Of a stretch of 64,000 bases of DNA, positions 13,638 to 62,825 are shown piece by piece. A model generated the notes under the pieces. The model saw only the letters and a program-made list of their open reading frames with translations. It was not told the DNA's origin and ran no database searches. The stretch lies in NCBI GenBank assembly GCA_000004695.1, contig CM000151.3, positions 7,424,001 to 7,488,000 on the forward strand, given 5' to 3'. Each line of letters opens with the position of its first letter. The stretch's first letter is position 1. The position numbers and the translations under genes were made by a program. The DNA is from Dictyostelium discoideum (taxonomy: Eukaryota).

Positions 13638-14267
13638 AGTTTTGAGGTTGATTAATTCATTGATGTTGATGATGTCGGTGAGATACAACACAGCAATACC
13701 CAAAGTATTCATAAACATCAACAGCATTTCTCACCAAAAAGGTAGAAACACCCTCTTCAGATTCTTCTCAAGATCACTTCCAGGTATCAACCACGAAAGA
13801 GACACCAGATGCAAGATCTGTGGCCACCTATTCAGAGACCCTTATTCTCACCTCTTCACTCTATGCCAAGATATCCTTGATATTGAAAAAACCATCATAT
13901 CAACAGTTAACAAATTATCATTCATCAAAATCCACAGATGGTCAATGGATACCTTAGACATATCAAAATACAACAGAACTGAGAGAATCTTCCCCAATCT
14001 CATAGGAATAATAGCACACCAATTATGGAAGATAATCTGTCACAAATTGTTCAACACTGATGAAAGCAAACCAGAGCCAAAATTCGAACAAAAGGTCATA
14101 GAAACAGAATTACTAAATCTCATCGAAACTGAAAAATTCATCACACTAAAGAAAATCAAACACGACGAAGCAATACTAAAAAACACCAATCAAGATCTTC
14201 ACAAATACAAATTCAACAAAGCCTGGCAAACCCCAGCAGCTCCGAACCCTCTTCCAATTTAAGTAGT

Positions 14268-25283: not shown

Positions 25284-27310
25284 ATGAGAGTATTACTTGT
25301 ATTAGTTGCATGTTTAACATATTTTAGTGGTGGTGCATTAGCACAATGTAAGTTCCTTGAATTAAATAAAAAATAAAAAAACAAATAAAAAATTAAAGGA
25401 TTGAAAAAAAAAAAAAAACCAATTAGATTAAGTTTTTGGAAAAAAAAGTTAAAAAAAAAAAAAAATGAATCAAATAATAAAAACAATAATAATAAACATA
25501 ATTAGAATAAAAATATAGAAAAAAATCTAACTTAAATATATTTTTTTTTTTTTTTTTTTTTTCTAATATAGCATGTTCTTCATATTCTGGTGACAATTGT
25601 CCAAGTACTTGTTTCCAAGGATCATATGATATCCCATGTGGTGCACAAGTTAAATATTGTACAGAAATGAAAGATAATTGTGGAGAAGGTGGTGATGTTA
25701 AATGTTGGAAAGATGGTAGTAATCTCCCAGTCCAAACATGGAGTTCATGTGTTCCAAGTGAATTATTTGGTCCAAATGGTAAATTTAAACCAAGTGAAAT
25801 ACCAAATTCTTCAAATTGTCCAACAAATTGTGAAAATGGTGTAGAATGGGTTAATTTATGTGGTTTATCTTGCGATGCTAAAACAGCATGTTGCCCAGAT
25901 GTTTGTCAATGTAAAGGTGGTCAAACAAGTGGTGGTTCAACAACTGGTTCACAAACAAGTGGTGGTTCAACAAGTGGTGGTTCAACAACTGGTTCACAAA
26001 CAAGTGGTGGTTCAACAACTGGTTCACAAACTAGTGGTTCACAAACAAGTGGTGGATCATGTTCAAATACTCAATGTCCAAATGGATTCTATTGCCAAGT
26101 TCAAGGAAATAATGCAGTATGTGTTCCACAACAATCATCAACCAGTGGTGGTCATCAAAATGATCCATGTGATACCGTTCAATGTCCATATGGTTACAGT
26201 TGTGAATCTAGAGATGGCTTTGAAGCTAAATGTACTAGAGATGAAGATGAACCAACTCATAGACCAACTCATAGACCAAAACCACCACACGACAGTGATA
26301 AATACCTCTGTGATAATGTCCACTGCCCAAGAGGATACAAATGTAATGCTAAAAATGGTGTTGCCAAATGTATTGCCGGTTATGAAATTCCAAGAGTATG
26401 TCGTAACATCCAATGTCCAACCGGTTACAGATGTGAAGATCACAACCGTAATCCAATCTGTGTTTTAGAAGAAAGAGAGAATCCAGATAATTGTTTAACT
26501 TGTAATGATGTTAACTGTGAAGCCTCTGGTTTAGTTTGTGTTATGACTCGTGCTAGATGTAAGGTCGGTGCTGCTAAATGTTGTGATGTTCAACCAACTT
26601 GTATCAAACCATCAACCATCGCAGGCTCAACCATCGCTTCAATTGCTTCTACTATTGCTTCAACTGGTTCAACTGGTGCTACTTCACCATGTTCCGTTGC
26701 TCAATGTCCAACTGGTTATGTTTGTGTCGCTCAAAATAATGTAGCTGTTTGTTTGCCAAGACCTACCACTACCACCGGTAGCACATCTGACTCGTCTGCC
26801 CTTGGTTCAACCTCTGAAAGCTCTGCCTCTGGTTCCTCTGCTGTTTCAAGCTCTGCCTCTGGTTCTTCTGCTGCTTCATCTTCACCATCATCATCTGCTG
26901 CAAGCTCTTCTCCATCTTCATCTGCTGCAAGCTCTTCTCCATCTTCATCTGCTGCAAGCTCTTCCCCATCTTCATCTGCATCATCAAGCTCTTCCCCATC
27001 TTCATCTGCATCATCAAGCTCTGCCCCATCTTCATCTGCATCATCAAGCTCTGCTCCATCTTCATCTGCATCATCTTCATCTGCATCATCTTCATCTGCA
27101 TCATCTGCAGCAACTACAGCTGCAACTACAATTGCAACTACAGCTGCAACTACAACTGCAACTACAACCGCAACCACAGCTACAACCACAGCCACAACCA
27201 CAGCTACAACCACAGCTGCAACCATAGCTACAACCACAGCTGCAACTACAACTGCAACTACAACCGCAACCACAGCTACAACCACAGCTACAACCACAGC
27301 TACCTCTTAA
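25284..27310 (+). CDS. Secreted Cys-rich protein with repeated C-P-x-G-[YF]-x-C modules and a C-terminal Ser/Ala- then Thr/Ala-repeat (mucin-like) tail. Spore-coat (SP96/Cot-like) or extracellular-matrix type. join(25284..25347, 25572..27310).
   Basis: ATG at 25284 gives the signal peptide MRVLLVLVACLTYFSGGALAQ. GTAAGT donor at 25348 and ..atatag acceptor at 25571 are in frame with ORF 25667..27310. Five repeats of QCPxGYxCxxxxxxxxC. Tail (SSSASSSSAPSSSA)n then (ATTA/ATTT)n. Confidence 0.7.
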
Positions 27311-49842: not shown

Positions 49843-50021
49843 TCAAACCTGTAATAACAAATGACTATGAAAAAAAAACAATCAAACCAACACATTAATA
49901 TCCCAAAATTAAGATTTTTTTTTTTTAATGAAAATATTTATTTAAAAAATTAAAATTAAAGAAAAATAAGACTAATTGGTTTAAAGGATTTATAAAAAAT
50001 GGTGTTCATTTGTGTTTCCAA

Positions 50022-51279
50022 TTAATCAAAAATAAGTTCAATTAAATATAGTTTTGAATCTGCATTATACCCAGTTTTTGTACCACCATTCATAGATCTA
50101 ATACATTTAAATATGACTTGTTCATTTTCTACTGTAATAAGCTTGGATTCATTAGTGGCATGTGGTGGATTTTGGAAATTTTCATTATAAACAAAGTAAG
50201 AGTTTCTAAATTCTTGTTCAGTACCTTGATTAAAACTTAACACTTCTGAAACAGGACCACTTTCAACAACCCATGTAGCATTGCCATTAATATGATGATG
50301 TATCTTAACTTTAAATGATCTTTTTTTAATACTTTCAAACTTTACAATCAAAGTTGCTTGTAAATTTAAATTTCCTGCATTAAGTCCCTTGGAAAATAAA
50401 TAATAAAAATATAAATTAATATAAATTTTAGTTTTAAAAAAAAAAATAAAAAATAAAAAAATAATAAATTACTCTAAACCCAGAAGATAAACTATTGGTA
50501 ACTTGAGAAAACCCTGCAATTAAACCTGGGTAAAGTAAGTGGGAACCTCTTTCATCACCACAATTAAAATGAATTTCACCAATATTTCTTTGGTAATCAA
50601 ATGCTCTAAGAGGATAATAGGTAAAGTCTGCATTTTTGAATTTTCTTACAGCATTAAAGTATGGTGGTATATAATAACCAATAATTGGGGAAGTTTCTTC
50701 TCTAAAAATATGACGGGAAAGCATCCAACCTGATTTAACAGTGATTTCAAAAAATTCTATTGTATAATCATGAATTTTTTTTTTTGCATCTTCAACATCA
50801 AAATCACTGAAACCCCATTCTTTACCATAAAGATGACAATCTCTTTGTAAACAAAGATATTGTGAAGCTGTTAAAATATAAAAACCAATGGTATTAATCT
50901 TTTTTTTTATTTATTTTTTTTTTATTTTTTTTTTTAAAAAAAGAATAATTAATAAAATTTTTTTTAATAAAAGAATTAATATTAAAAAACTTACTAATTC
51001 ACTTTCTTCCTTAAAATAAATTAAACCATCAGTTATTTTATCACGATACATCATTAATTGAAATTGAAGTGAAGAATTAAGTTGTTCATTAGTCATTACT
51101 TGAATATCATTTGGAATAATACTACGACTAACATTTTTATTTCCATTTCTTGAAAAATATTCTTCAGCTAATACAAAATAGTCATCGCCAGTTTTTTGAA
51201 GTTGTTGGAATTTAATTATACATTGTCTCTCTCTTTCTTGACTTAACTTATGGTCAATTAATTTTTCAACTGCTTCCAT
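50022..51279 (-). CDS. Conserved hypothetical protein (about 358 aa), three exons complement(join(50022..50387, 50473..50898, 50995..51279))
   Basis: ATG at 51279. GTAAGT donor at 50994 with ..aaaag acceptor at 50899 (phase 0). GTAATT donor at 50472 with ..ttccaag acceptor at 50388 (phase 0). This joins all three listed minus ORFs in frame (..KEESEL|INTIGFY..SSGFR|GLNAGNLNL..). No family assigned; possible His-rich, cupin-like C-terminus. Confidence 0.5.
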
Positions 51280-51437
51280 TATTTGTTTAAAGCTAAAACC
51301 ATAAATTTTTTTTTTTTTTTTTTTAATTTTTTTTTTTAATATTTAAAAAAAAAAAAAATTTAAATTTATTATATTAGTTCTTTTATATATATATTTTTTT
51401 TTTTTTTTTTAATTATTATTATAATTATTTTAAGTAA

Positions 51438-51806
51438 TTACAATTGTTCTTGGGAATTAAATAAACCGAGACTATTAAAAAGAATATTAATAGCACCGAA
51501 AATAATTGGAGCAACACCTGAAGGATCAGCACTCATTGCAAGACCCAATATTTCCCACATTTCTGGAAATGGCATTTCACTGTAAAGTTCTTTGGCACTT
51601 TTTTCAGATTGAATTGATTGGAATGAAATTTTCAAATCTTTAATTTCATTCTCACTAAAATTTGAAATTGAGTTGTTTTGTTTCTTTAATTCAACCAATT
51701 GTTCATTTAAAAAATTATTTAATTTTTCATCATAATTTTCATACACTTTCTTGGCTCTTATTTTAGAATCCTCCAATTTTGAAATTTGTTCCACTGATAA
51801 AGTCAT
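51438..51806 (-). CDS. Small coiled-coil protein with a C-terminal transmembrane segment (122 aa), tail-anchored-type hypothetical
   Basis: ATG at 51806. C-terminal GVAPIIFGAINILFNSLGLF hydrophobic helix. No family assigned. Confidence 0.45.
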   Translation of the reverse strand: MTLSVEQISKLEDSKIRAKKVYENYDEKLNNFLNEQLVELKKQNNSISNFSENEIKDLKISFQSIQSEKSAKELYSEMPFPEMWEILGLAMSADPSGVAPIIFGAINILFNSLGLFNSQEQL

Positions 51807-51871
51807 TTTTTAATTTGGTTTATTGTTTAACAATAATAATATTAAAATAATTATAATTTTTCTTGTTTTAA

Positions 51872-51920
<49 letters not shown>

Positions 51921-51959
51921 AATAATTGGCTATTAAATGAAAAATGGATTGGGAGTCAG

Positions 51960-52600
51960 TTAAAAATTGTAATTGGAGAATTTTTTTTGATTAAATCTGA
52001 AACTGATTGGGTTTTTAACCAAAGCTCAAAAAAAAAAAAAACCAATTGGTTTTAAAAATTATTAAGATTGAATCTCAAAAAATTTATTTTTGTATTCTTC
52101 TTTCAAATTAAAAAAATGGTTTAATAAATGAAAAGAATTAAAAAAAAGAATTGTTTTTTTCATTATACAAATTAAAAAATAAAATAAAATTAAAATTAAA
52201 ATAATTTTTTGGTTTTTTAAAATCAATGAGGTTGTGAGCTTCACTTATTATTAGAACTTTTTTGTAATTTAAATTTAATTCAAAAAAATAAATAAAAAAA
52301 AAATTTAAATTACAAAATATTTCACCAAACCCCCAAAAAAAATAAAAAAAATTATGATAATTTTAATTTTAATTTTTTCACACCTCAAAATTTTATTAAG
52401 GCATTGTTATTGGAAAATGAAACATTACCAATAAAATCCTTTTTTGATCTGGGAGTTTAATTTGTAATTTGGTAATTTTCATTTTTTTTTTTTTTTTTTT
52501 TTTTTTTTGTGTGGTTAATAATGGGGAAATAAGTTTTGAGGTGTGAAAAAATTAAAAACAATCAAGAAGGTAAAAAACAAAAAAAAACAAAATCAAAATA
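51960..52600. repeat. Copy 1 of a ~0.6-kb dispersed, locally duplicated block (the partner is at 54830-55400)
   Basis: Collinear matching segments: 51990-52060 / 54990-55060 (..attggttttaaaaat..); 52195-52260 / 54838-54905 (..tttttggttt..aatcaatg.ggttgt.agcttca..); 52395-52590 / 55165-55385 (..gcattgttattg.aa..gaaacatta.caata.aatccttttttgat.tgggagtttaatttgtaatttggtaatt..T-run..gtgtggtta.taatg..agttttgaggtgtgaaaaa..aaggtaaaaaacaaaaaaaaa..). Confidence 0.75.
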
Positions 52601-52745: not shown

Positions 52746-53012
52746 TAAGCTTGTTATTTAGGTCTTTTTCTTTTTTTTTTTTTTTTTCTAATAAATTTCA
52801 TTTTAGTTAAATGAATAAAGAAATTAAAGAAAAAGAATTTTCATTTTTAATTATTGGCCATAAATATTATTTAAAGTGTATTTTTACTAAAAACTTAATA
52901 AAAAATATATATATTTATTTAGAAATTATAATAAATTAATAAAATGAAATATAAAATATTTTATTTATATAATTTTTTTTAATTAATAAATTAAATTTAA
53001 TTTTTTTATTAT

Positions 53013-54717
53013 TTAAGGTCTAACTTGATTTCTATAATAAGTCAAATCTAAAGCATTACATTTTGGATCATTTGTAAAAGTATCTTTAGTTTCAATAGTT
53101 GTTTCCAAAATTAAAGTTGAGTTTTGAGTAGAAGTGACTTGTCTCCATTGTATTGGTACATCTAAACCAGTGTTTGGATTATGAGTAGTTGCAAAGTTAA
53201 CTATATAGTTATTAATATCAATAGCTAATTCCTTTTCATCATTATCCAATCTTTCACCCATTAATTCATAGCTATTAAAGAATAGTGATAATTCAGTACC
53301 ATGACATACTTTATCATCACAGGCATCCAATGAATGACCAGTTGATTTTACATGAACATAATAGTAATGATAGGTTGGGGATGAAAGCTTTTTAGCATTT
53401 GTAACGGTATGATATCTATCTGGACATCTGAATAAATAATCAGTGATTAATTCAGATAAAATTGGTCTTGAATCTTGACCTCTTGGAGCGGCTGGATATA
53501 ATGGTAAAATCTTCATAGCATTCAATGGGAAAACAATAGCAACGAGAACTCTATAGTAATCAATTCCAACAATATCTTGGAAAAATGAATAAATGAATGG
53601 GATAGCTTCATGTTTTACACTTCCAATAATGGTTGGAACATCATATGTTTTACCTTCCTTTACAGCGGTTAATGGTTGCATTGGTATGATATCTCCGTCG
53701 ATAACTGGTGACCAAATAGTAAAAGCATCTAGAATTTTATCACCAAAGGTAAGTCCAACTTTTTCTTGGGCTTCAAGAATTTCATCCATTGATTTACCAC
53801 GAAGACATGTTAAATCTTCAATATTACAACCAACATTTGTTGCGAATCTATTAGCATTACCTCTGGCGGTTGTTTTGTCTTTCAATCCAACAGTCAATGG
53901 TGATGATGATGAGATGGCAGCATTAAAATATTGTCTTGAATAAGTAGATGTTAAATGAGCTGAAACTGAAAAGGCTCCTGCAGATTCACCCCAAATTGTA
54001 ATCATTTCTTTATTACCACCAAAGGAACCAATATTATTATAAACCCATTCTAATGCTTTAATTTGGTCAAGGAAACCATAATTACCATGCATTAAATCCT
54101 TTTTAATAATTAAAAGAGATAATAACAATAAAAAAATAATATATTAATATATTTATTAAATTACACATATATTAATAATGTATATTAAAACTTACAGTTC
54201 CCATAAAACCTAAAACACCTAATCTATAATTAATATTAACAACTATTACTGATGATTGAGCAAATTTAGTAGCATCATAAAGAGGTACAGAACCACTACC
54301 AACACTAAATGCACCACCTGGAATATAAACAATTACTGGGTATTTTGAATTTGGTGTGGCATCTTTTGGAGTAAAAACGTCAAGATATAAACAATCTTCA
54401 GAAGTACCAATTGGAGAGCAAACACCTGGACCAAGATTACATTTTTGAGCACATTGTGATCTTTGGGTTAAAGTTTCTCTAACATTTTCCCATGGCTTTA
54501 AGTCAATTGGATTTTCCCATCTTAATTGGTTCACTGGTGGTTGAGCAAATGGAACACCATAGAATACACGATGAGTATCTTCAACAATACCCTTAATTGC
54601 ACCAAATTGAGTTACAACAATTGAAGCATCTGTGTTTTTAATGTATGATCTTTTTCTTGCAAAAGAAATATTAATTAATAATAACAATAATAATATAAAA
54701 ACTAATAATTTATTCAT
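53013..54717 (-). CDS. Type-B carboxylesterase/cholinesterase-family secreted protein (crystal-protein / D2-esterase family), two exons complement(join(53013..54098, 54196..54717))
   Basis: Signal peptide MNKLLVFILLLLLLINISFA. Oxyanion/active-site context ..EDCLYLDVFTP.. and nucleophile elbow GESAGA (..ITIWGESAGAFSV..). GTAAGT donor at 54195-54190 and ..aaaag acceptor at 54099 (phase 0). About 535 aa. Confidence 0.85.
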
Positions 54718-55609: not shown

Positions 55610-57475
55610 TTATTGTTGTCTATTTTCTAATTTAATTTTTTGTTTTAAAATTCTTATACCAACTCTATGTCTTTTATAAATTATAGAACCAATTATAATA
55701 ATGATTGCAGCACCTACAGCTGGTGCAACAATTACCACTGGTAAAAACCATTTTGGTCTGGAATCATCATCATCACATGAAGTTTTATAATCTTGGTCTA
55801 CTAATAAAGAGAAATCAGGATCAATTAAACATGTTTTACAATGTGGTAGATTTAGCCCAATTAAAATAGAATCAGTTCTTTGTCCAACAATTGAAGTTGA
55901 CATAAAAGTTTCTCTACCATCCGAAATTACTTTATTGATAAATCTACCATAAAAAGTTTTTGAATCTTTTGAAATGGTTAAATAATTTAAAGATTGATCG
56001 TTTTTGAAATCATTTGTATTTATATCTAATTTCTTTGCGTTACAATTTTTATTACCATTTGAATTATTATTACTATTATTATAATCGCCTAGAGATGATT
56101 TAATTCTTAATTGAATTGAATTTAATGTACTATGATATGTATAATTTTGAATTGAAACTGTTAATTTAAGTGAACCGGGTGATAATGTAAAATTAACACC
56201 TGCAAATGAATAATTTTTATTTTTACCAATAACTTCTTCAATTGAATATTCAATTGTGCAACTTGCATTTGAAATAAATTGTGAAAATACAACAATTCTA
56301 TTATTATCATTATTAGTATTATTATTGTTATTAGTTTTATTCCATTTATTACTTAATAAAAATTCATTTACTGTTGAACCATTAAAATTTAATTCAACAA
56401 GTGAATAAATAGAAATTTGATAATTTGAACCATCATTTGAAATTGAAGCTTCACCTGTTGTTTCATTAATATTTGGTTTTGATGATGGTGCATCAGGGTT
56501 GGAATCTTGTGAATTACAATTGAAACCTGTAAAACCATTGATACAAGTACAAATTCCTGAATCAGTATTACATATACCATTTGATGAACTTGTACAATCA
56601 TTAGGACATGAATGTTTAATTTTAGTATATTGAAAAATTTGTTTGCCAGTGTAGGATATATCCATATCGATTATTGTTACATCTTTTATACCTTCACCTG
56701 GACCAATATCACATTGAATTGTTGAATCATTAATAACTTGAATATTCTTACATTGTAATTCACCAATTTTAATTGATAATCTTTGAGATGTAGTTGTTGT
56801 TGTTGTATTATAAATACCAAAATAACCATGTAAATAAGTTGTACCGCCATTAATTGTTGTTGAATCAACAGAGTTGATATAAATTCTAGACAATTCACAA
56901 CCTTTACCATTGGTTTGAGAATCACATTCACATTCACCAGTTACTCTATTACAAGTACCATGTGGTTGTGAACAATTCAATGGACAATCTCTACAAACTA
57001 GGCTAGTATCAATTTGGACTCCATATGTACATCTTTGAATTTCTAGTCCAGGTGCTGTTACATTTAATTTTGGGATATTTGGGTTACATGAAAAAACAAA
57101 TGATGTTTTTCTTCTATTTGGTTCTGGTGCATCAGAACAATCATTACCTGTTATTGGTTGGAAAATTTTTGATCTATACACAATTGTCATACCACTTGAT
57201 GTATAATTTACAGTTTCACCAACATCTATAGAACCAAGTTGAAAAATTCCAATACTCTGACATGCTGTTGCTCCAGTTACATTACAAATATTAAGTGTGC
57301 CATTGCAAAAATTAAAATAAGTTTCGAATGAAGTTGATGATAAATTTGTTGAAGGAAATGCTACTGTATATTTTAAATCTGGTATCCTTTTTTTTTTTTT
57401 TTTTTTTTTATTAATATAAAATAATTTTTTTATTTTTTTATGGATCAAACAGGATTAAAAAAAAAATTTTTTATT

Positions 57476-57522
<47 letters not shown>

Positions 57523-57655
57523 CTTACAATTTTAATGATGATAGATTATAAGGTTGGTTTACAATTGGATTAAAATATTGACAATCTGAACATTCAACTT
57601 TTGTTATAAAATTATTTAAAAATATAAATAAAAATACAAGTAATATAATTTTCAT
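55610..57655 (-). CDS. Type I transmembrane protein with EGF-like modules and IPT/TIG-like beta-sandwich repeats (Tgr/ComC-like cell-surface family), two exons complement(join(55610..57386, 57528..57655))
   Basis: Signal-peptide exon MKIILLVFLFIFLNNFITKVECSDCQYFNPIVNQPYNLSSLKL with GTAAG donor at 57527 and ..aaaaag acceptor at 57387 (phase 2, in frame with ORF 55610..57448). EGF-like CPLNCSQPHGTCNRVTGECECD.. and CPNDCTSSSNGICNTDSGICTCINGFTGFNC. Transmembrane helix VVIVAPAVGAAIIIIIGSIIY followed by a basic tail. Confidence 0.7.
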
Positions 57656-57948
57656 TTTTTTTTTTTTTTTTTTTAAAAAATTAATATTAAAAAAAAAAAA
57701 AAAAAAAAAGATTTATAAAAAAAGAGAATTGAAAAAAACAAATAAAAAAATAAAAAAAATGATTGGTTTTTGGAATTAAAATGGGAAAAAAAAAAATAAA
57801 AAAATAAAAAAATAGAAAAAAAAAAAAACAATAAAAATATCTTTTTTATTTTTTTTTTTATTTTTTTTTTTTAAAAAAAGCTCGGAATAAATCAAAACCA
57901 CTCCCAATTTTTATTTTAAAAATATCTTCGCTCCCAAAAATAAAAAAG

Positions 57949-57983
<35 letters not shown>

Positions 57984-58047
57984 TTTTTTTTTATTTTTTT
58001 TTTTTTTTTCCGATTATTTTATGATTACTTTTTCTGACTAAATTTTT

Positions 58048-60420
58048 TTATTTTTCTTTCAAACCTTTTGCAGCCATTTTGATATTATGTTTAATAATTT
58101 TAATTTCCACTTTTTTCTTATAGTATAGTACAGATCCAATAATTATTATTAAAACAAAGGTAACGGCAGGAGCACCAATAACAACATATAAGAACCATTT
58201 TGGTCTAGCATCATCACATGATGTTTTAAAATCACTATTTACTAATAAACTGAAATCAGGATCAATAATCACTTTTTTTAAAAAATGAGGTAAATCTAAA
58301 CCAATAAAAACCACATCATTATTATTACTATTATTATAATTATTATTTATTACTGAAGTTGAAATAAATGTTGGCCTATCATCAGATAAAACTTTATTAA
58401 TGAAACGACCATAAAATGTTTTTGAATCTTTTGAAATTGAAAAATAATTATTTAAAGAATTACTATTATCCAATTTTTCCGAATTAATATTTAATTTCTT
58501 TGAATTACAATCAATATTATTATTATTTGTTTCATTTTTACCAATTTTCGATTTAATAATAAGTTGTAAATTATTTAAATTATTTAAATATTTATAATTT
58601 TCAATTACAATGGTTAATTTAATTGAACCTGATACAACAACAAAATCAACATCACAAAATGAAAACATTTTATCTTTACCAACCACTTGTTCAATAATAT
58701 ATTCAATTTTACAATTTGAATCATTATTTAAATTTTGTGAAAATGTAACAATATTATTAATATTTGTGTCATTTGCCAATGGAGAAGAAGATGATGATGA
58801 TGAAGATTAATTCCAACTATTTTCAAGAAGGAATTCTTTAACAATTGTACCATTATAATTTATTTCAACTAATGAAAAAATACTAATGAAATATTGTGAT
58901 TTTTCATTTATAATTGATGATTCACCAGTTGTAAGATTTACATTAGGAGTTGATGGTGATAAACCTTTTGAAGAACAATCGATACCAGTGAATCCTTCAT
59001 CACAAATACAAGCTCCATTTGTTGTATTACACTTACCATTTAAATAACAATTTGTTGAACAATTGAAAGATGGTTGGATATATTTAAAAATTTTCTTACC
59101 CATAGCTATTAAATCATTATCAAAAATTTCAACATCTTTAATACCACTACCTTTTCCAATAATACAATTTATAGTTGAATTATTGAACTGATTAATATCA
59201 GTACAATGCAAATCACCAATCAAAATGGTAATATTTGAAGTTAAAATACCAAAATAACCATAAATCGTTACATTTCCACCTTCGATTGAAGTTGAATCAA
59301 TTGAACTAATATACAATTTTGATATTTCACAACTATTACCTATTGTTTGTGAATCACAATTACAGAAACCAGTGCCATCTTCTTCAACAACTATGCATAA
59401 ACCATGATTTGAACAATTTAAAGAACACTCAATATATTTAAATTCAACTGTCGAAGAATTAGATTTACCAATTGAAATTATAGTATTGTGAATACCAGTA
59501 CCTGGTCCAACATAACAAGTTATGGTCGTTTCATTAATATGAGTTATATTTATGCATTGTTGATAGTCACCAATATAAACTGTAAATGGGAAATTATCAT
59601 TTGGTGAACCAAAATTACCATAAAGTGTTGTTAAACCACCACTAATATTTAAAGGAACAATTGAATTTAAACTCAAATGATAAGTCTGACAATGGTTACC
59701 ACTAGTCAATGAATTACAATTACATGTATACTCCTGATCGAATTGACATTCACCATTTGTAGAACAATTTGCTATACAACCATTGAAGAATATCTTGGCA
59801 TGAACTGGTCCTAAATCACCAATTCTTAATATAACATCCTTCGTTCCTTGATTCTTACCAGTTGTACAAATTAATTCATTCTCACTAATATAAAATATTG
59901 GGTTACAATTTAATTCTTCTATTGAAATTGAAGTTGAACTAGAATTATCGCCAAAATAACCTTTAAAAGTTACATTTCCTCCATCTGCTTTTACTTCTAA
60001 TTTATTGGTAATTTCAATTCGTGAATTGTCACATATTTCTCCATTTGTATATGAATCACAAACACATCCCTTTTGATCATTTATATCACATATACCATGT
60101 GAATTTATATCTCCACACCCTGGTGGACAAGGTACACATACTGTATTGGTTAAATAGGTAACACTATAAATACATGTGGCAATTTCCTTAATTTTATTAT
60201 CTTCAATTTGTTTTTTAAATAAAGTTGAATTATATCTAGTACCACAAACTAAATTGACTGTCAAATTTCTCTGACGATTATTTTTCACACAATCATCTTC
60301 TTTTCCAGTCAATAAAATTTTTAATCCATCAATAGTTGGTTCATAAAGAATTTTTTCACCAATTGTCTTACATCCTGATTCTTGTATAAAAGGAGCTTTG
60401 ATTTTATAAAATAGGCACAA
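58048..60420 (-). pseudogene. Tandem paralogue of the 55610-57655 gene. A continuous 790-codon frame is interrupted by a single in-frame TAA at 58807-58809, and no signal-peptide exon is recognisable. Probable pseudogene, or a truncated secreted variant.
   Basis: ORFs 58807..60420 and 58048..58779 are in the same frame, separated only by TAA (..LLENSWN*SSSSSSSPLANDT..). The paralogue reads straight through here (..LLSNKWNKTNNNNN..). Downstream part retains the transmembrane helix VVIGAPAVTFVLIIIIGSVLYY. Upstream of 60420 the frame stays open to an ..aatag acceptor at about 60505 but no Met or hydrophobic leader was found. Confidence 0.5.
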
Positions 60421-60531
60421 AAATTCCGCATTTTCACAAAAATTTATATGAGATCTTAATTCTGGTTTATCATTTTGATAAATAAATGTTAAATAAGAGT
60501 TGGAGCTATTAAATTAAAATACAATTAATTA

Positions 60532-60598
<67 letters not shown>

Positions 60599-60752
60599 AT
60601 TACCCTTGTAAACTACCTAAAATATAAGTTTTGTCAAATTTACTTTGATAAATACATTTGATTTGTGCAAAATTTATATTTTAAAGGTAAAATAATAATA
60701 AAAGAATAGGTAAAATGGGTTTCAAAATTTTTAAAAAAAAAAGATTTAAGAA

Positions 60753-60795
<43 letters not shown>

Positions 60796-61196
60796 CTTCA
60801 AACTAAATAAATAATAATAAAATAAAAAAAAAAATTAAAAAAAAAAAAAGCCACTTGATTATAAATTATTCAAAAAATTTGCCTTCCTTTTAAAAAAGAT
60901 ATTATCTTTAATAATCGATCTTTTTAGTCCAATAGTATAATTCCTTTTTTTTTTTTTCTTTTTTAAATTCCAACCAAAAACTTGTTTAGAAAATTTCCAA
61001 TAAAATTAAATAATTTTTAAGCCAATAAAAAAAATATCCAGTTTTGAAGCCATAAAAAAAAAAAAAAAAAATCTCTTCTTGTTTAATTCACTTTTTTTTT
61101 TTTCCAATTGTTTTTTTTTTTTTTATTTTTTTTTTTTTTTTATTTTTGTTTTTGTTTTTGTTTTTTTATGAATATATGAAAAAATTTAAATTAGTT

Positions 61197-62825
61197 TTAG
61201 TGTAAGAAATTTCTATTGCCAGTAAAAACCATTGGAATACCATATTTATTTGCAGCATCAATTACTTCTTGATCACGAATACTACCACCTGGTTGAACGA
61301 TACAAGCGATATTACCTTGATGAGCTAAATCGATTGAATCGGCGAATGGGAAGAAAGCATCAGAAGCCAAAACACTTCCTTTAACTTTATCACCACCAAC
61401 TTTCATACAAATGTCAACAGATTGTGAACGATTTGGTTGACCAGCACCAATGGCAACGATAGTTTCATCCTTTGATAAAACGATAGCATTTGATTTAACA
61501 TGTTTTGAAACTCTCCAAGCGAATAAGAGATCTTTCATTTGTTGTTCAGTTGGTTTATTTTCAGTGACGACCTTCCAATTCTTTGTAGCTTCAGCAAGGT
61601 CACCTCTGATGATTGGATTTGGAGATTGAAGTAAAGCACCACCAGTGATGGTACGAATATCAGGTTGAGTGAATTGAATTTGATTGGCGGCCTCTGGTAT
61701 ACGAAGAATACGTAATTTCTCTTTTTTACTTAACAATGCTAATGCATCTTCGGTGTAATCTGGTGCGATGATAACTTCATAGAAAACACTTTTCAATGCA
61801 GTTGCAGTCTCTAATGTTAAAGTTCTATTGAAACCCAAGATACCACCATAGGCAGATTTTGGGTCACCATTGAAGGCACGTTTATAGACCTCAGCTTGTT
61901 CACTATCATTAACACCCACTGAAAGACCGCATGGATTGGTATGTTTAATGACAACACATGCACATCTATCAAACTCTCTGACTGCTTTCAATGCAGCATC
62001 ACCATCTAAAATATTATTATAAGATAAAGCTGGACCATGTAATAATTGTGCATTTGCAATACCACCTGTACCTGGACATTGATAAAGTGCTGCTTTTTGA
62101 TGTGGATTCTCACCATAACGTAAATCATTCTTCTTTTCATATAATGGTAAAAATGTTTGTGGGAATTCTACATTGACAGATGCTGAATCTGTGCCTTTAA
62201 CACCTTGAATGGTAGTTGCATTTGTTAATTCAACCTTTGAAAGATATTGTGAAACGGCTGCATCATATGAACATCCATGTTGGAATGCTTTTAATGCCAA
62301 TTTCTTTCTCTCTTCCAATGTGATTGAGCTTAAAACATTGGTGGAATCAGTTGATGATTGTATACGCTCACCAATCCATTTATAATCTGATGGATCGACA
62401 ATGATTAAAACATTTTGAAAATTCTTTGATGATGCTCTAATTAATGTGTGTCCGCCAATATCAATATTTTCAATTGCTTCCTCTAATGTTGTTGATTCTT
62501 TTGATACTGTCTCTACGAATGGATATAAATTTACAACTACGATTGAAATTGGTTTAATGTTATATTTATTTAAATCGGCTTGATGATGTGCCAACTCTGG
62601 ACGTGCTAATAAACCACCATGAATCTTTGGATGTAAAGTTTTCACTCTACCATCTAACATCTCTGGATACTCTGTAACATCTGAAACTTGTTGAACTTTT
62701 AATCCATTATCAACCAATGATTTTGCTGTACCACCTGTTGAAATTAAATTAAATCCTTTACTTGAAAGAATCTTTGAAAATTCAACAATACCACTTTTAT
62801 TATAAACACTTAATAATGCTTGCAT
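61197..62825 (-). CDS. purH: Bifunctional purine biosynthesis protein PurH/ATIC (AICAR transformylase / IMP cyclohydrolase)
   Basis: MQALLSVYNKSGIVEFSKIL..GFNLISTGGTAK.. (MGS-like IMPCH domain) followed by the AICARFT domain (..VVIKHTNPCG..; ..ACIVQPGGSIRDQEVIDAANKYGIPMVFTGNRNFLH C-terminus). Confidence 0.9.
   Translation of the reverse strand: MQALLSVYNKSGIVEFSKILSSKGFNLISTGGTAKSLVDNGLKVQQVSDVTEYPEMLDGRVKTLHPKIHGGLLARPELAHHQADLNKYNIKPISIVVVNLYPFVETVSKESTTLEEAIENIDIGGHTLIRASSKNFQNVLIIVDPSDYKWIGERIQSSTDSTNVLSSITLEERKKLALKAFQHGCSYDAAVSQYLSKVELTNATTIQGVKGTDSASVNVEFPQTFLPLYEKKNDLRYGENPHQKAALYQCPGTGGIANAQLLHGPALSYNNILDGDAALKAVREFDRCACVVIKHTNPCGLSVGVNDSEQAEVYKRAFNGDPKSAYGGILGFNRTLTLETATALKSVFYEVIIAPDYTEDALALLSKKEKLRILRIPEAANQIQFTQPDIRTITGGALLQSPNPIIRGDLAEATKNWKVVTENKPTEQQMKDLLFAWRVSKHVKSNAIVLSKDETIVAIGAGQPNRSQSVDICMKVGGDKVKGSVLASDAFFPFADSIDLAHQGNIACIVQPGGSIRDQEVIDAANKYGIPMVFTGNRNFLH

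Follow-up and report, generated by a model that had tools for sequence, protein, structure and literature searches.

Two paralogous genes on chromosome 2

The stretch analysed here, referred to as the window, comprises 64,000 nucleotides of very AT-rich DNA from chromosome 2 of Dictyostelium discoideum AX4. It contains two paralogous genes for predicted single-pass surface proteins, copy A (55610–57655) and copy B (58048–60725), the second of which is interrupted by a premature TAA stop codon. All of the genes under discussion lie on the minus strand, with copy B transcriptionally upstream of copy A, and coordinates are window positions unless a locus of another assembly is named. Open reading frame (ORF) and BLASTP analysis confirmed both same-strand paralogues at the places given to them in an earlier note on this DNA, which had been made from the letters alone. 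The two proteins showed 51% identity over 479 residues (E = 7e-129) in an alignment that crosses the stop; the paralogous pair, its common architecture and the lone nonsense codon are real and far beyond chance. Copy B is made up as follows:

60604–60725, minus strand: leader (signal-peptide) exon, 122 nucleotides, phase 2, donor GTAATT, aligned to four orthologous loci
60506–60603, minus strand: leader intron
58048–60505, minus strand: exon 2, a single reading frame with one internal stop; the MRH domain extends to 60127
59779–60129, minus strand: EGF-TIG unit 1
59428–59778, minus strand: EGF-TIG unit 2
59074–59427, minus strand: EGF-TIG unit 3
58969–59061, minus strand: EGF4
58243–58944, minus strand: ComC supersandwich domain (ComC_SSD)
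58807–58809, minus strand: premature stop TAA, codon 607 of 859; AAA (Lys) in the other lineages examined
58120–58197, minus strand: transmembrane helix, followed by the tail

Exon 2 starts at 60505 and not at 60420, and its frame is collinear with intact orthologues of 854–893 residues. As the earlier note had stated, nothing but the TAA at 58809–58807 breaks the long frame from 60420 to 58048, and the Lys-Thr that it had placed opposite the stop in copy A was likewise found there: copy A reads NKWNKTN and copy B NSWN(stop)SS, that is, W-N-K-T against W-N-stop-S. Approximately 45 residues of the 222-position ComC supersandwich domain precede the stop, and 204 codons separate it from the transmembrane helix downstream, so that a product ending there would lack most of that domain, the transmembrane anchor and the tail. 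An intron skipping the TAA was considered and rejected, as no usable donor or acceptor was present and both copy A and the orthologues have coding sequence homologous to the flanks.

Copy A has the same layout with fewer modules:

57528–57655, minus strand: exon 1, with the ATG, the signal peptide MKIILLVFLFIFLNNFITKVEC and the start of the MRH domain; donor GTAAGA
57387–57527, minus strand: intron, 141 nucleotides, phase 2
55610–57386, minus strand: exon 2 including the stop codon, with the rest of the MRH domain to 56984
56891–56986, minus strand: EGF module
56621–56890, minus strand: TIG module
56510–56608, minus strand: EGF module
55802–56476, minus strand: ComC_SSD
55676–55750, minus strand: transmembrane helix, followed by a short basic tail

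Spliced copy A encodes 634 residues and is an exact match to XP_642940.1 (DDB_G0276847), an AX4 hypothetical protein which UniProt names "MRH domain-containing protein"; the leader exon proposed earlier at 57528–57655 is thus sound, since the splice regenerates the database protein exactly. A Logan contig (L008) spans just exon 2 of copy A and has no bearing on splicing or expression.

The premature stop and the leader exon in related lineages

Comparison with a second assembly, GCA_054883475.1 (ACTFIT, locus L003), revealed 99.4% identity to the window over 12 kb, with 12 homopolymer-length differences and 15 substitutions. The differences at 12 homopolymer runs indicate that ACTFIT was sequenced independently and is not a copy of the reference, and the presence of the same TAA in it excludes a one-off read error. 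Codon alignment showed TAA in AX4 and ACTFIT, and AAA in five of five other lineages, each of which carries an intact orthologue of copy B:

ACTFIW, locus L001: 861 residues, intact
ACTFIR, locus L004: 866 residues, intact
ACTFIY (D. cf. discoideum), locus L002: 854 residues, intact
ACTFIZ (D. cf. discoideum), locus L007: 893 residues, intact
Dictyostelium citrinum, locus L005: 892 residues, intact

The gene order purH, copy B, copy A, carboxylesterase is kept in all five of these lineages; in the window, purH is the minus-strand ORF at 61197–62825, an exact match to XP_642943.1. Relative to the intact orthologues, copy B of AX4 carries a disabling lesion, as is expected of a unitary pseudogene. 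Synonymous divergence (dS) of purH from AX4 was 0.064–0.113 for the ACTFI lineages and 0.24 for D. citrinum, values which indicate that the five lineages with an intact copy are not close strains of AX4. Read from this alignment, the TAA reflects one A-to-T substitution peculiar to the lineage of AX4 and ACTFIT, and it is confirmed for that lineage only.

The assemblies labelled "D. discoideum" (ACTFIW and ACTFIR) and "D. cf. discoideum" (ACTFIY and ACTFIZ) showed approximately 7–10% DNA difference from AX4 across the locus. We take this divergence to be far above the usual within-species level, and its extent suggests cryptic species-level lineages. Gene models in the new assemblies fuse neighbours, joining copy A to the esterase in ACTFIW (1226 residues, L001 13023–17694) and copies B and A to each other in D. 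citrinum (1474 residues, L005 12054–17550). Some protein searches missed the orthologues because the automatic gene models had fused neighbours in this way.

Copy B had been described earlier as lacking a detectable leader exon. Such an exon is present at 60725–60604, homologous to that of the orthologues and with the same splice phase as in copy A; the orthologous proteins start with MKSIFTILLILFYLLNINYAQIKC..., coded by a 122-nucleotide phase 2 exon, as in copy A. In the window this exon is disabled, with TTG for ATG at 60725–60723 and TAA for TTA at 60683–60681 (codon 15), and reads L-K-P-I-L-P-I-L-L-L-L-F-Y-L-stop. The ACTFIT exon is intact and translates as MKSILTILLLLFYLLNINYAQ..., so that the whole product has a normal signal peptide and 606 residues (P0018), in place of the secreted ectodomain of 537 residues that the earlier note had envisaged.

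Of the 15 sites at which the window and ACTFIT carry different bases, fourteen were packed into 124 nucleotides (60617–60740), between two poly-A tracts of roughly 55 nucleotides each, leaving a single one in the other 11.9 kb. At all 14 clustered sites ACTFIT agreed with ACTFIW and ACTFIR, and at the great majority also with ACTFIY, the odd base being in the window. Furthermore, the replaced base was a sense-strand A at 12 of the 14 sites (by T at nine of them), as in the change of TTATTTATAT to TTTTTTTTTT. A cluster this dense, strand-asymmetric and one-sided is unlike natural mutation and points to poor Sanger base-calling after a homopolymer. From this pattern, the leader-exon lesions of the window are very probably errors in the AX4 reference sequence rather than biology. 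Gene conversion was rejected as a source of the leader differences, as a second copy of the leader sequence is absent from the window. Mutagenesis of the AX3/AX4 lineage with nitrosoguanidine (NTG) was also rejected: NTG mainly produces G:C-to-A:T transitions, whereas A-to-T and A-to-C transversions made up most of the changes seen here.

The fifteenth substitution, at 52480, is also derived in AX4 and lies directly after a poly-A run. There, ATT in ACTFIT, ACTFIW and ACTFIY is ATG in AX4 (the other loci are also without ATG); the site is approximately 660 nucleotides upstream of an Endotoxin_N-like gene and could lead AX4 gene models to a false start codon. Within 57386–57527, 57680–58040, 60506–60603 and 60745–60800, homopolymer runs of the AX4 reference consistently exceeded those of ACTFIT by 1–21 nucleotides.

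Domain architecture, family placement and neighbouring genes

The EGF modules, the TIG modules and the single hydrophobic helix followed by a basic tail that had been listed earlier were present in both copies; that list had missed an MRH domain and a ComC supersandwich domain in each. The complete architecture is signal peptide, MRH domain, EGF-TIG (one unit in copy A, three in copy B), EGF, ComC_SSD, transmembrane helix and short basic tail, with KRHR (A) and KKK (B) read directly from the sequence after the hydrophobic stretch. Pfam analysis identified ComC_SSD (PF22933) at residues 347–571 of copy A (6.4e-61, 206 bits) and in copy B (7.2e-50, 170 bits), against a gathering cutoff of 24 bits; an orthologue (P0012) scored 164 bits. 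EGF_2 scored 23.8 and 22.9 bits in copies A and B, respectively. TIG gave nothing at E values up to 0.1 in the full-length Pfam scan of both copies, and the modules scanned alone scored 23.4 bits in copy A and 27.4, 21.2 and 25.3 bits in copy B, with a cutoff of 20.9.

The N-terminal 150 residues had no Pfam match. A profile of the N-terminal domains, run against PDB sequences with hmmsearch, identified them as MRH domains through matches to CI-MPR (6.4e-22), CD-MPR (0.009) and ERLEC1 (0.047). The AlphaFold model of copy A had a mean predicted local distance difference test score (pLDDT) of 56, with 70–84 over much of residues 100–220, and only its better-predicted MRH and TIG regions were used. 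It matched domains of CI-MPR, the MRH domain of Yos9 and, among TIG domains, those of EBF3 and CAMTA1; the Foldseek match to CI-MPR domain 8 had an E value of 1.5e-4 and a TM-score of 0.58, which is target-normalised and comes from a low-confidence model. Copies A and B share this sequence and fold homology with the MRH or P-type lectin domains of CI-MPR, CD-MPR, XTP3-B and GNPTG. They differ in where the domain is placed: it heads a cell-surface EGF/TIG stalk, in contrast to its place in a sorting receptor or an endoplasmic reticulum quality-control lectin.

Mannose 6-phosphate is bound in CI-MPR domain 3 by a Gln, an Arg, a Glu and a Tyr. When the A-type relatives were aligned to that domain, seven of eight kept C-Q ... 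R ... E-x3-C-x-Y, and copy A may be a lectin, as judged from these residues. Copy B keeps the Arg, Glu and Tyr and is without the Cys-Gln at the aligned position in every lineage; its head domain is probably not a canonical lectin. D. discoideum has been described as having no detectable mannose-6-phosphate receptors (PMC2114169). Another MRH-domain protein of AX4, DDB_G0283243, was among the four genes found mutated in a suppressor strain (PMC12954983).

An exhaustive HMMER search returned 601 cluster representatives at E values up to 0.001, 174 of them at E values up to 1e-30. Most of the 601 align just to residues ~175–630 of copy A, which indicates that the common unit is an EGF-TIG-EGF-SSD-transmembrane cassette under varied N-terminal heads. 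The same membrane-proximal cassette (EGF, TIG, EGF, supersandwich, transmembrane helix, short tail) is found in the ComC-type family (PF22933, PF24141, PF24143). ComC-like relatives carry LRR_ComC and a second ComC beta-sandwich as their head, whereas copies A and B have the MRH domain there instead. Neither LRR_ComC (PF24141) nor Beta-sand_ComC_2nd (PF24143) was present in copy A, copy B, the orthologue P0012 or the relative P0021, and the same scan finds both in P0028 and P0033. Full-length MRH-headed relatives comprised P0019, P0021–P0024, P0036 and P0038. On these domain assignments, copies A and B are an MRH-headed branch of the ComC-type cassette family and not ComC orthologues. The comC gene appears in a published list of developmental genes with EGF domains; its product has a signal peptide and a transmembrane segment, and the gene is conserved only in group 4 dictyostelids (PMC4931340).

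The pair had also been labelled Tgr-like allorecognition genes, a label that the domain architecture does not support, as both copies carry ComC supersandwich and MRH domains. TgrB1 and TgrC1 are likewise single-pass surface proteins with IPT/TIG modules, in tandem clusters that expand and decay. To our knowledge, the Tgr ectodomain consists essentially of IPT/TIG repeats, with no EGF, MRH or ComC domain; unlike this architecture, copies A and B have EGF modules, an MRH domain and ComC_SSD, and just one to three TIG modules. No Tgr protein was found among the named homology-search matches, although no search was aimed at Tgr sequences. The tgrB1 and tgrC1 genes are marked by extreme polymorphism. 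Exon 2 of copy B is identical in AX4 and ACTFIT, and between ACTFIW and ACTFIR copy B showed a nonsynonymous divergence (dN) of 0.013 and a dS of 0.024; in these two close pairs, variation is well short of that known for tgrB1 and tgrC1. Together with tgrD1, these two genes have been grouped as encoding IPT/TIG cell-adhesion proteins (PMC4931340).

A tblastn scan of the window found no family members beyond copies A and B, and a literature search for DDB_G0276847, DDB_G0276851 and DDB_G0276849 (the last two from copy B) found no paper in the searched library that mentions these gene IDs; a search there for the new Dictyostelium assemblies was likewise empty. By the annotations of syntenic loci, a COesterase carboxylesterase gene and a second gene, to which Pfam gives a weak match with Endotoxin_N (Bt-toxin-like), lie 3' of copy A, at approximately 50000–52000 and 52930–54717, both on the minus strand. 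Elsewhere in the window, positions 25667–27310 (plus strand) form its sole GC-rich kilobase (42% GC). The ORF there encodes 547 residues, is Cys-rich and has long Ser/Ala/Thr-rich C-terminal repeats; judged by eye only, it resembles a spore-coat protein such as SP96 (cotA).

Evolutionary rates and the fate of copy B

Rates were obtained from Nei-Gojobori and parsimony counts with our own scripts, and branches were polarised with ACTFIY as the outgroup. Pairwise omega (dN/dS) was approximately 0.05 for purH, 0.18–0.29 for copy A and 0.55–0.73 for copy B overall. Within copy B, six-taxon omega was 0.46–0.67 in the middle of the protein and 0.04–0.36 in the C-terminal cassette, and the region after the stop gave 0.14–0.26 in the other lineages. 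Positive selection on the MRH region was considered, as pairwise dN/dS there was approximately 2, but a Fisher test gave P = 0.08, the six-taxon count gave 0.85–1.2, and the claim was dropped. The dN/dS analysis that the earlier note had proposed therefore did not reveal strong diversifying selection: the N-terminal part of copy B is fast and not demonstrably above 1. On these counts we claim that copy B evolves fast; positive selection is unproven.

Substitutions on the AX4 branch and on the stem of ACTFIW and ACTFIR numbered 10 and 13 for purH, 34 and 33 for copy A, 41 and 51 for copy B before the stop, and 15 and 3 for copy B after the stop. The contrast between the regions after and before the stop (Fisher P = 0.0037) is as expected under relaxed constraint, although the counts are small. 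The changes after the stop on the AX4 branch comprised 9 nonsynonymous and 6 synonymous ones. Beyond the stop, 259 codons still form an open frame that resembles the orthologues, and a second lesion was not found in them. Drift after the stop with no second lesion indicates that the event was recent relative to the ~7% divergence from the nearest intact lineage.

Duplication and decay, which the earlier note had attributed to families of this type, were borne out at this locus in D. firmibasis. Between purH and the copy A orthologue of that species lies just a frameshifted relic of the 3' end of copy B (L006 ~13900–14250), which reads ...LNLPHFIKEVIDPDFSL..., ...CDDSRPKWF... and ...MTAKSLKEK over three frames, and a second A-like copy of 884 residues is present downstream of A (L006 18390–21114). 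D. dimigraforme has two adjacent A-like genes. These loci point to at least two losses of copy B, that in D. firmibasis being independent. At L006 12100–12830, a GC-richer insert is fused to purH in a gene model of 787 residues.

We consider it likely that the AX4 gene is a lineage-specific allele of recent origin, null or truncated, of copy B, a fast-evolving and dispensable paralogue, and that its leader lesions are errors of the reference. An A-to-T change in the lineage of AX4 and ACTFIT would have converted Lys AAA to TAA. Translation would then end ~45 residues into the supersandwich domain, and the loss of most of that domain, the transmembrane anchor and the tail would be expected to abolish the membrane receptor. 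Any remaining transcript would yield at most a soluble fragment of 606 residues ending in a broken domain. Copy B is most likely a null allele or a young pseudogene, a loss of function that we infer from the sequence, and the position of the stop inside a folded domain argues against a designed soluble isoform.

Several points weigh against this interpretation. The acceleration after the stop rests on 18 substitutions, and its synonymous component (6:2) goes beyond what relaxed selection alone would give. No acceleration was seen before the stop on the AX4 branch (41:51), which a truncated soluble protein still in use also predicts. If ACTFIT were AX4 itself or a sibling laboratory strain, the TAA would be confirmed for that lineage alone. 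If it were another strain, the leader lesions of AX4 could be real, which would still be compatible with a pseudogene.

Among the alternatives, the one that survives best, though we regard it as unlikely, is that the truncation created a functional secreted protein of 606 residues (signal peptide, MRH domain, three EGF-TIG units and EGF4) that has been kept by selection, e.g. as a decoy or a soluble ligand for partners of the membrane forms. The intact signal-peptide exon that precedes the truncated ORF in ACTFIT is consistent with this, as is the acceleration of copy B after but not before the stop on the AX4 branch; moreover, the stop lies in the last exon, where exon-junction-dependent mRNA decay should not apply. 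However, the stop does not fall on a domain boundary and leaves ~45 residues of a 222-position beta-sandwich, which should not fold. The N-terminal half evolves at an omega of ~1 in all lineages, so the lack of acceleration there carries little information, and in D. firmibasis copy B has been lost outright.

It is very improbable that the TAA arose as an error of sequencing or assembly, or is read through, and that AX4 makes the full-length receptor. The reference does appear to hold an error patch only 1.8 kb from the TAA, and the frame downstream is fully open. The same TAA nevertheless occurs in ACTFIT, whose independent sequencing is evident from its 12 homopolymer and 15 substitution differences; its site is ordinary non-homopolymer sequence (AAT TAA TCT), and the acceleration after the stop argues for relaxed constraint. 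A TAA with T as the next base is not known to favour read-through.

The public AX4 annotation cuts copy B into two hypothetical genes, the first of which draws its start codon from a very short exon:

DDB_G0276851 (XP_642942.1, P0017), minus strand: 570 residues, ending at the TAA
60644–60657, minus strand: "mini-exon" ATGTATTTATCAAA, 14 nucleotides, source of the start codon in the DDB_G0276851 model
58048–58668, minus strand: DDB_G0276849 (XP_642941.1), 206 residues, exact match, with an internal Met, midway along the supersandwich domain, as its start

Rebuilding the splice from 60657–60644 regenerates the 570 residues of XP_642942.1 exactly. We rejected the mini-exon as a true leader, as it is out of frame and lies inside the genuine leader exon, and regard it as an annotation artefact. 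The ORF of DDB_G0276849 aligns collinearly with the intact orthologues and constitutes the 3' part of copy B. That the two are independent genes is hardly credible: they were deposited separately in AX4 and the ACTFIT annotation repeats the two-ORF split, but the ORFs are in the same frame, 138 nucleotides apart, with a spacer homologous to coding sequence; they form one continuous ORF in five related genomes and in paralogue A; the ORF of 206 residues begins inside a domain with no signal peptide; and the model of 570 residues depends on the out-of-frame mini-exon. In reading one disrupted gene rather than two, the earlier note was ahead of the public annotation.

DDB_G0276851 and DDB_G0276849 should accordingly be combined into a single gene record marked as disrupted by a nonsense codon, and the chromosome 2 reference probably needs correcting over the 124 nucleotides at 60617–60740. 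Both annotation and the study of ComC-type receptors in AX4 stand to benefit from the result. It is not surprising and does not overturn current understanding, as gain and loss of members are known for such gene families. The analysis defines an MRH-headed subfamily of ComC-cassette proteins with a conserved member, A, and a fast-evolving, repeatedly lost member, B. The standard laboratory strain would be without a membrane-anchored ComC-type receptor that is present in its closest relatives. As a speculation to which we give little weight, copy B may be a rapidly evolving cell-surface recognition receptor that is null in the laboratory lineage; separately, the intact A-type proteins, with the full Gln/Arg/Glu/Tyr tetrad on a plasma-membrane stalk, could be lectins for Dictyostelium phosphomannosyl glycans. 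If copy B is such a receptor and its null allele segregates in the laboratory lineage or has become fixed there, all studies of adhesion and kin discrimination that rely on AX4 would have been done in a natural knockout.

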